Assembly: GCF_055900595.2 (NCBI RefSeq)
Contig: NZ_CM148325.1
DNA: 64,000 bases
Direction: 5' to 3' (one strand)
The position numbers and the translations under genes are program-made. The first letter of the stretch is position 1, and the number at the start of each line of letters is the position of its first letter. Under the pieces are notes generated by a model, which saw only the letters and a list, made by a program, of their open reading frames with translations, made no database searches and was not told the DNA's origin. This document shows positions 24,731 to 26,154 of the stretch, piece by piece.

Positions 24731-25997
24731 CTATGGGATAAACTTATTTTTACCAATTGTATAAGGCGGTGCATAAGATTCTCGGCATGCTTCCAGATAA
24801 TCCGACCACCACTGCATCATCGCTTTGCGGGCTTCCAGGTGCTCTGCCTTATGAATATAAGCCATGCGCACGGTATTGCGCTCCTGATGACTCATCTGGC
24901 GTTCTACTGCGTCCTTTGCCCATAAACCCGATTCCATCAGCGCACTGCATGCCATTGCCCGGAAGCCGTGACCGCAGATATCCTTTTTCGTGTCGTAACC
25001 CATCACCCGCAGTGCCTTATTGACCGTGTTTTCACACATTGGCTTATACGGGTTATGGTCGCCGGGGAAGATCAGTTCATTATTACCGGTGATATCCTTA
25101 ATCTGTTTCAGAATGGCGATGGACTGTTCTGAGAGGGGGACGATATGCGGCATTCGCATTTTTGCCCCGCGGCCGGAATAATGCACGCCAATAATGGGTT
25201 CTCGCGTCGCGGGTATCGTCCAGACTCGGTTTGTGAAATCAATCTCTGACCAGCGGGCGAAACGCAGTTCACTGGAGCGAATGAACACATGCAGCATCAG
25301 CAGAACGGCATGCCGGGTCAGTTCACGGCCCTGATGATATGCCCCAATACGTTCAAGCAGTTCAGGCAGCCGCTCCAGCGGCAGGGCAGGATAGTGCCGT
25401 CTGACAGGAGGTGTGGTCACGCCGCCAAGGTTTGCTGCAGGGTTCGTATCGATTAACTCCTGATGGACCGCATGGCGTATTATGTTACTCAGGTGCTGCC
25501 GTGTGCGGGACGCAACCTCCAGCAGACCTTTTTCCTCGATCCCTTTCTGCAGGTCAATGAAATGACGGGGTTTAAGTTCTGATACAGGTAGGTTCCCGAT
25601 GACCGGAAAGATGTGATTGTTCAGGCTGGCAAGCAGACGGTCGGCGGTGTTCTGCGACCATTTCCTGTTACTTTTATGCCACGCCAGCGCCACGTTTTTA
25701 AAAACTTTCTCCGGTGTTCGTGAGCCACGTACAGCAGCCCGCTGCTGTACCGGGTTGATATTCAGCGCCAGCATTTTACGGATACCTTCAAGTTGCTGTC
25801 GCGCATCAGACAGGGAGATGGCTGGATAGGCACCCAGCGCAATGCGGGATTCTTTACCGCTAATACGGTATTTGAGATACCAGTGGCGGGAGCCACCCGG
25901 CTTGACCCGCAGATACAGACTGTGAGAATCGGAGACTTTAAAGGGTTTATCAGAAGGCTTGAGGGTGCGGATTTTTGCGTCGGTAAGGGATATATGG
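24731..25997 (-). CDS. int: P4-family tyrosine integrase of the HPI; in-frame homology runs to about 25997 but the first ATG is at 25774
   Basis: Track ORF 24731..25774 (347 aa, MLALNINPVQQ...). Same-frame upstream translation gives ISLTDAKIRTLKPSDKPFKVSDSHSLYLRVKPGGSRHWYLKYRISGKESRIALGAYPAISLSDARQQLEGIRK, a typical P4 integrase N-terminus, but the expected initiator codon reads ATA and a TAA stop lies three codons upstream. Confidence 0.8.
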
Positions 25998-26154
25998 GGG
26001 TCACTCCATTATCGAACTAACCTGACCCCAGATTTGACCACCAATTTTTCCCGATGCGTAGGGTAAAATCAAAATGCACCGAGAAGAGTTTTCACACTAA
26101 CCTGTTGAATCAACATCAGATAAAGATTCGCAAGGATGCAAGAAAACAGAAAAT

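Follow-up and report, generated by a model that had tools for sequence, protein, structure and literature searches.

The 64,000-nucleotide stretch analysed here (the window) holds the left end of a yersiniabactin high-pathogenicity island (HPI) at the asnT locus of E. coli. Its integrase gene, int, reads ATA at the position where a P4-type integrase is expected to begin with ATG. This raises the question of whether int is translated from an unusual initiation codon, is shortened to a later one, or is no longer maintained as a gene.

Reading frame and predicted product of int

On the minus strand, the int frame runs from an in-frame TAA (26011-26009) through five codons (W-S-D-P-H) to an ATA (25993-25991), continues as SLTDAKIRTLKPSDKPF… and ends at a TAG (24733-24731), as read and translated directly (Table 1). 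This ATA falls at the conserved P4-type N-terminus (…SLTDAKIRTLKP). The ORF listing for the int frame holds no ATG, GTG or TTG between the upstream TAA and an ATG at 25774. That ATG (25774-25772), residue M74, is the first canonical start and lies 73 codons past the ATA; the canonical initiation codon of an expressible P4-like integrase is missing before codon 74. The window copy is free of internal stops and frameshifts.

A preliminary description of this DNA had reported that the canonical start is missing at the expected position, and the reading, the translation and the ORF list all agree. Its coordinates were slightly displaced: it placed the ATA at 25995-25997, 2-4 nt from the in-frame codon, and the TAA three codons upstream, where the actual distance is six codons with five in between. 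It also counted about 74 codons before the ATG at 25774; the frame is indeed open there, and the count from the ATA is 73. The CATATA around the start contains a second, overlapping ATA (25995-25993) that is out of frame.

Table 1. Features of the int region and its surroundings, in window coordinates
Feature	Position	Strand	Basis or remark
ybtX, ybtQ, ybtP, ybtA, irp2, irp1, part of ybtU	241-23205		Colinear with annotated island
ybtS	23233-24537	+	ORF list; neighbour of int
HPI integrase (int/intB) frame	24731-25993	-	420 codons plus TAG, with the ATA at the ancestral start as codon 1; translation, Pfam, RefSeq CDS of the same extent in L001 and L002
Catalytic tyrosine-recombinase domain region (aa 224-384)	24842-25324	-	Motifs present; R271H versus ancestral type
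Arm DNA-binding domain region (aa 3-87)	25733-25987	-	G25S, L29R and R68L versus solved HPI domain
First canonical start, ATG (M74)	25772-25774	-	347-aa product without nearly all of the arm-DNA-binding domain
ATA at ancestral ATG start	25991-25993	-	Third-base G→A transition; allele counts, five other genera, PDB 3JTZ
Out-of-frame mini-ORF ATG-GAG-TGA	26001-26009	-	Over the Shine-Dalgarno motif; sequence only; kept along with the leader
GGAG, Shine-Dalgarno-like motif	26004-26007	-	10 nt 5' of ATA/ATG; kept in every relative examined
In-frame TAA closing the int frame upstream	26009-26011	-	Direct reading; earlier start impossible
17-bp att core CCAGTCAGAGGAGCCAA, attL side	26154-26170	-	Single copy in window
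tRNA-Asn (asnT), island integration target	26155-26230	-	Co-oriented with int
Sigma-70-like promoter TTGACA-17-TAATAT	26249-26277	-	Upstream of asnT; strong, 10/12 match
tRNA-Ser(CGA)	27222-27311	+	tRNA search; mtfA lies between both tRNA genes

The protein predicted from the ATA has the three-domain architecture of a P4-like (arm-binding) tyrosine integrase. Pfam matches comprise Arm-DNA-bind_3 (aa 3-87, 3.5e-22), Phage_int_M (98-191, 1.3e-22) and Phage_integrase (224-384, 1.6e-19), and PDB matches to arm and core domains agree. Five candidate catalytic motifs (IRSSEL, GAKMR, HGFR, MSHQ and MAYIH) fall within the Pfam catalytic match; no solved catalytic-domain homologue aligned to this part. 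Within them, the candidate catalytic residues are R239 (IRSSEL), K278 (GAKMR), H342 and R345 (HGFR), H369 (MSHQ) and Y379 (MAYIH). Approximately nine amino-acid substitutions separate the window protein from the ancestral type. Of the 21 sampled E. coli alleles, only that of the window has R68L in the arm-binding domain (nt 25791), and this is the sole int difference from strain FDAARGOS_1058.

The leader also contains a two-codon mini-ORF, ATG-GAG-TGA, with 7 nt separating its end from the int start. All five non-E. coli relatives described below have it; the single-base leader change in Phytobacter, GAG→GAA-like, leaves its ATG and TGA unaffected.

Ancestry of the start codon and selection on the gene

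To determine how widespread the ATA is, we searched complete E. coli genomes. An exact 63-mer around the codon occurs in 842 of 5426. With codon-specific 31-mer probes, which seed only when the start codon itself matches, 919 complete genomes carry ATA and 1287 carry ATG, and the two together make up 2206 of the 2210 that carry the region. Among complete E. coli genomes with an HPI, ATA thus accounts for ~42% and ATG for 58%. Nissle 1917 and FDAARGOS_1058 are among the ATA strains; ST131 strain JJ1886 is among those with ATG.

A wobble-tolerant pattern for codons 2-13, applied to one genome per species, returned five loci in other genera (Phytobacter, Raoultella, Klebsiella spallanzanii, K. 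pneumoniae and Pantoea), and no Yersinia locus was among the matches. All five relatives have ATG at the int start. Their leader, including the GGAG and the TAA, is essentially identical to that of the window, with one base different in Phytobacter. In addition, the solved structure 3JTZ/3RMP, an 88-residue "Integrase / CP4-like integrase", has MSLTDAKIR as its first residues and differs from int residues 1-80 only by G25S, L29R and R68L. We take this protein to be of Yersinia origin, in agreement with the title of a cited paper. Since ATG stands behind the same leader in five other genera and the solved protein starts with MSLTD, we conclude that ATG is ancestral and that the ATA is derived by a single G→A transition. 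The preliminary identification of a P4-type HPI integrase with a mutated start codon was therefore correct: asnT adjoins the gene, and in the comparison that it had called for, the ATG of the references (other E. coli, the five genera and 3JTZ) falls at the very position of the window ATA. We found no explicit earlier mention of an ATA or a start-codon change in HPI int in the open-access literature.

Other forms of the gene occur as well. E. coli EC45 has a Klebsiella-type int, ~2.5% divergent and with ATG, beside an iron ABC-transporter cluster instead of asnT. The ancestral-type int protein is extremely widespread, with 9072 blocks of the assembly collection listing it.

In RefSeq/PGAP, the ATA alleles appear as ordinary intact 1263-nt CDSs (420 aa) whose first codon is ATA. 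ATA is among the initiators of NCBI genetic code table 11, and homology-guided start calling that admits it under this table is the source of the intact-integrase label.

An unusual start that is in use should be followed by an ORF under purifying selection. We counted derived changes in 21 E. coli alleles, polarised by the Raoultella and Klebsiella alleles, leaving the start codon out of the counts and excluding the IS1 junction bases of one allele (L011, nt 973-990). Deletion and IS alleles were handled in a register-preserving manner, as a MAFFT alignment that included them was distorted. In this sample, which was partly picked for diversity and comes from a recombining locus, asnT-type E. 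coli int shows 30 nonsynonymous and 8 synonymous derived changes, a dN/dS of 1.18 (p=0.85 against neutrality). Changes private to ATA alleles number 18:4 (dN/dS 1.41) and those private to ATG alleles 9:3. Between species, in contrast, the dN/dS of int is 0.15-0.17, and the difference from the within-E. coli value is significant (Fisher p from 3e-4 to 5e-7). No purifying selection was thus detected on the ORF downstream of the unusual start (dN/dS 1.18-1.41).

Since within-species polymorphism is generally enriched in nonsynonymous changes, we used seven whole islands as an internal control. There, the eleven ybt genes together show 72 nonsynonymous and 86 synonymous changes (dN/dS 0.27) versus 21:5 for int (1.32; Fisher p=0.0012). 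In E. coli, int evolves at the neutral rate, in ATG and ATA backgrounds alike, with no detectable constraint; a dN/dS of about 1 would also fit a mixture of purifying and positive selection. In the seven-island sample, ybtP differs from the other ybt genes with 8 nonsynonymous changes and 1 synonymous, these being small numbers. Apparent paired irp1 indels between the window or its near-identical island (L006) and the other islands were an alignment artefact, produced by neighbouring substitutions in a single codon. In EcN_Sk (L038), a Nissle-derived assembly, irp2 is annotated as frameshifted, which may be genuine or may stem from misassembly.

Besides the start-codon change, several sampled alleles carry disabling lesions. 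Three (L004, L016 and L017) lack int nt 124-470, exactly the 347-bp deletion published for truncated intB in E. coli and Enterobacter HPI (Paauw 2010, PMC2801613). Others carry a +2 frameshift, a nonsense change, Q394* (L026, an ATA allele), or a truncation by IS1 (L011, also an ATA allele). Relaxed selection together with independent disabling lesions is what characterises a decaying gene, or incipient pseudogene, and int in E. coli shows both.

The ATA is present on several int haplotypes (L29/E88, R29/E88 and R29/V88), in violation of the four-gamete test. Whole-island sequence gives the same picture: ATA islands form no clade, and 46 of 136 informative sites conflict with the ATA/ATG split. 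The HPI spreads among E. coli through homologous recombination (PMC2606025), and the backbone of the window island is 1.4-4.4% divergent from that of its twin in FDAARGOS_1058. Because HPI recombination is documented and the same haplotype sits on divergent backbones, recombination alone would suffice to explain the spread of the ATA over haplotypes. Recurrent mutation to ATA, or reversion, is possible as well.

The island around int and its attachment sites

The window has the gene order of an HPI beside an asn tRNA, int-ybtS-X-Q-P-ybtA-irp2-irp1-ybtU… (241-24537). The int gene is co-oriented with the asnT 3' end that carries the att core, and its start lies 161 nt downstream of the tRNA. The core, CCAGTCAGAGGAGCCAA, is as published (PMC2801613).

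An integrase needs a pair of att sites for excision, so the second copy of the core bears directly on whether int has anything left to act on. The 27.4 kb of the window that comprise the island and its junction are 99.92% identical to FDAARGOS_1058, without gaps and with 21 mismatches. Over the whole 38-kb FDAARGOS_1058 locus (L006), covering the island and both flanks, no second core was found within <=3 mismatches; the asnT copy is the only one. Consistent with this, the fyuA-side 17-bp repeat is deleted in all but one of the HPI-positive ECOR strains (PMC2606025), and its loss from the E. coli HPI has also been published elsewhere (PMC8209727). The window begins within ybtU, and attR loss for its own island is inferred from the near-identical island and this literature; on these grounds, the window island was probably already fixed. 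With the fyuA-side repeat lost, the integrase would have no substrate pair for excision, which would make int dispensable. The preliminary description had proposed that the start mutation would immobilise the island. This is not supported, as the repeat is already gone both from the 99.92%-identical island and from published E. coli HPIs.

Several neighbouring features deserve record. Identity between the window and FDAARGOS_1058 is 99.92% over 1-27400 (the island and asnT-mtfA-serU) and only 95.6-98.6% over 27400-62735, past serU. One HPI haplotype thus sits on two backbones, with identity falling just beyond the tRNA-Ser, a pattern that fits spread by large-fragment homologous recombination. 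Farther along, a ~1.5 kb deletion in FDAARGOS_1058 (L044, about 22521-22528) fuses partial fliK and fliM, with fliL missing; the window retains the deleted segment at 51223-52701, and its flagellar region appears intact. Two strains, L1_E925 (L011) and FCI54 (L018), have DUF6387 and HTH genes before int instead of mtfA and tRNA-Asn, and the asnT-mtfA-serU junction in them appears from this gene content to be rearranged or deleted. Finally, E. coli CRE78 (L043, NZ_CP166186.1 858000-906400) has an ICE-type HPI at asnV, beside nac and cbl. Its int is of the ancestral type with ATG, and a complete VirB-type type IV secretion module follows fyuA. This island is likely a still-mobile relative within E. 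coli.

Whether any integrase is made depends on transcription and on initiation. The asn tRNA promoter drives HPI int after integration (PMC8209727), and no terminator-like site was found between asnT and int; the asnT promoter is therefore likely the source of int transcription, via read-through. Initiation at AUA in E. coli, relative to AUG, is 1-2%, 0.1-3% or 0.02-3% depending on the reporter construct (Hecht et al., bioRxiv 10.1101/063800), and with the 420-codon ORF otherwise intact, its candidate catalytic motifs present and the Shine-Dalgarno motif preserved, full-length Int may be made in trace amounts from the ATA. The preliminary description had offered an unusual initiation codon as one of two readings. 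RefSeq annotates the gene in this way and table 11 allows it, but initiation would be trace at best, and the codon is neither conserved nor selected. A conserved unusual start of the regulatory infC/lacI type is not what we observe, given ATG in 1287 E. coli genomes and in the five other genera.

Explanations for the ATA start and their consequences

We consider the ATA to reflect ordinary neutral decay, the island having already been fixed through loss of its second att site and its integrase having become dispensable, a reading to which we assign a probability of about 0.8. The fyuA-side att repeat would already have been lost, leaving int without a substrate pair for excision. The gene accumulates amino-acid changes at the neutral rate, independent lesions have arisen in other lineages, and ATG has become ATA by one G→A transition, while the remaining ORF of the window is still open. 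Read-through from asnT would presumably still transcribe int. The GGAG leader would permit at most trace initiation at the ATA, perhaps 0.02-3% of that at ATG, and trace initiation at M74 may give an arm-less fragment; neither product would be expected to affect island mobility.

Int loss might instead have been positively selected, for example as protection against rearrangement among the four asn-tRNA att cores, with the ATA as one convergent knock-out. At least five kinds of inactivating lesion in 21 sampled alleles are in keeping with such adaptive disarming, as are a dN/dS slightly above 1 and the occurrence of the ATA across different int and island haplotypes, in violation of the four-gamete test. 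However, the excess of this dN/dS over 1 is not significant (p=0.85), many ATG alleles stay intact, and HPI recombination explains the haplotype conflicts (46/136 sites) equally well (PMC2606025). We therefore regard positive selection for Int loss as unlikely. The broader proposition that the ATA is a selected state of either sort, as an attenuator for Int acting in trans on core-sharing islands such as the colibactin pks island or as a convergent selected knock-out protecting the chromosome, seems to us distinctly unlikely.

An attenuated functional gene would keep a low level of full-length Int, initiated weakly at the ATA and maintained by selection, e.g., for action in trans on pks or for rare recombination. 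Its appeal is that RefSeq annotates a 420-aa CDS, that both the ORF and its GGAG leader have stayed intact, that E. coli does initiate at AUA at a low level (Hecht et al., bioRxiv 10.1101/063800), and that the allele is frequent, with 919 genomes. What a maintained start would require is conservation, yet the non-ATG start is unconserved: 58% of E. coli carriers have ATG, as do all five other genera. Nor is the ORF behind it protected: ATA-private changes stand at 18:4 (dN/dS 1.41), and both the nonsense allele (L026) and the IS1 insertion (L011) arose on ATA alleles. We judge this reading very improbable.

We also weighed a start at M74 (25774), which would yield an N-terminally truncated integrase of 347 aa with core-binding and catalytic domains and some activity. 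M74 is the first canonical start, it is preceded by a weak AAGG at a distance of ~10 nt, and the protein would keep the domains at aa 98-191 and 224-384. However, almost nothing would be left of the arm-binding domain (aa 3-87), and lambda-type integrases depend on arm binding to build both the excisive and the integrative intasomes. Moreover, M74 is unconserved as a start, being Ile in one ATA allele (L010), and the retained domains show the same neutral evolution. We regard a functional truncated enzyme as highly improbable. That the third base of the start codon was missequenced or misassembled is practically excluded, since the same 63-mer recurs in 842 independent complete genomes and the ATA 31-mer in 919.

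The closest known systems compare with this gene as follows. The window int is the same gene as that of the Yersinia HPI and of ICEKp-ICEEc1 (P4-like, with an asn tRNA target): its DNA is 99.3% identical to that of Raoultella and 97% to that of K. pneumoniae, and it shares their three domains, the position of the tRNA-Asn with its 17-bp core, and ybtS as a neighbour. It differs from them in having ATA rather than ATG, in the lack of purifying selection, and in the absence of the second att repeat from the near-identical island. With the truncated intB alleles (PMC2801613) it shares a disabling lesion in the same gene of fixed islands, but in the window a point mutation has struck the initiator codon and left the ORF intact; as a result, annotation pipelines do not flag it. 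The window int resembles infC, which starts with AUU, and lacI, which starts with GTG (PMC11445065), in placing a near-cognate codon behind a normal Shine-Dalgarno motif. In those genes, however, strains and species share the unusual start and purifying selection acts on the ORF, whereas the window start is polymorphic and derived and its ORF evolves neutrally.

Loss of the start codon is thus an ordinary, expected and unsurprising event in a well-known gene. It raises no new mechanistic question, and its practical value is as an annotation caveat. The island itself offers a clean internal contrast in constraint, with a dN/dS of 0.27 for the cargo versus ~1.3 for the mobility gene after att loss. 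Hundreds of RefSeq E. coli genomes, Nissle 1917 included, list an intact "tyrosine-type recombinase/integrase" despite a lost ATG and pseudogene-like evolution. As a result, the presence of int is no evidence of a mobile yersiniabactin island.
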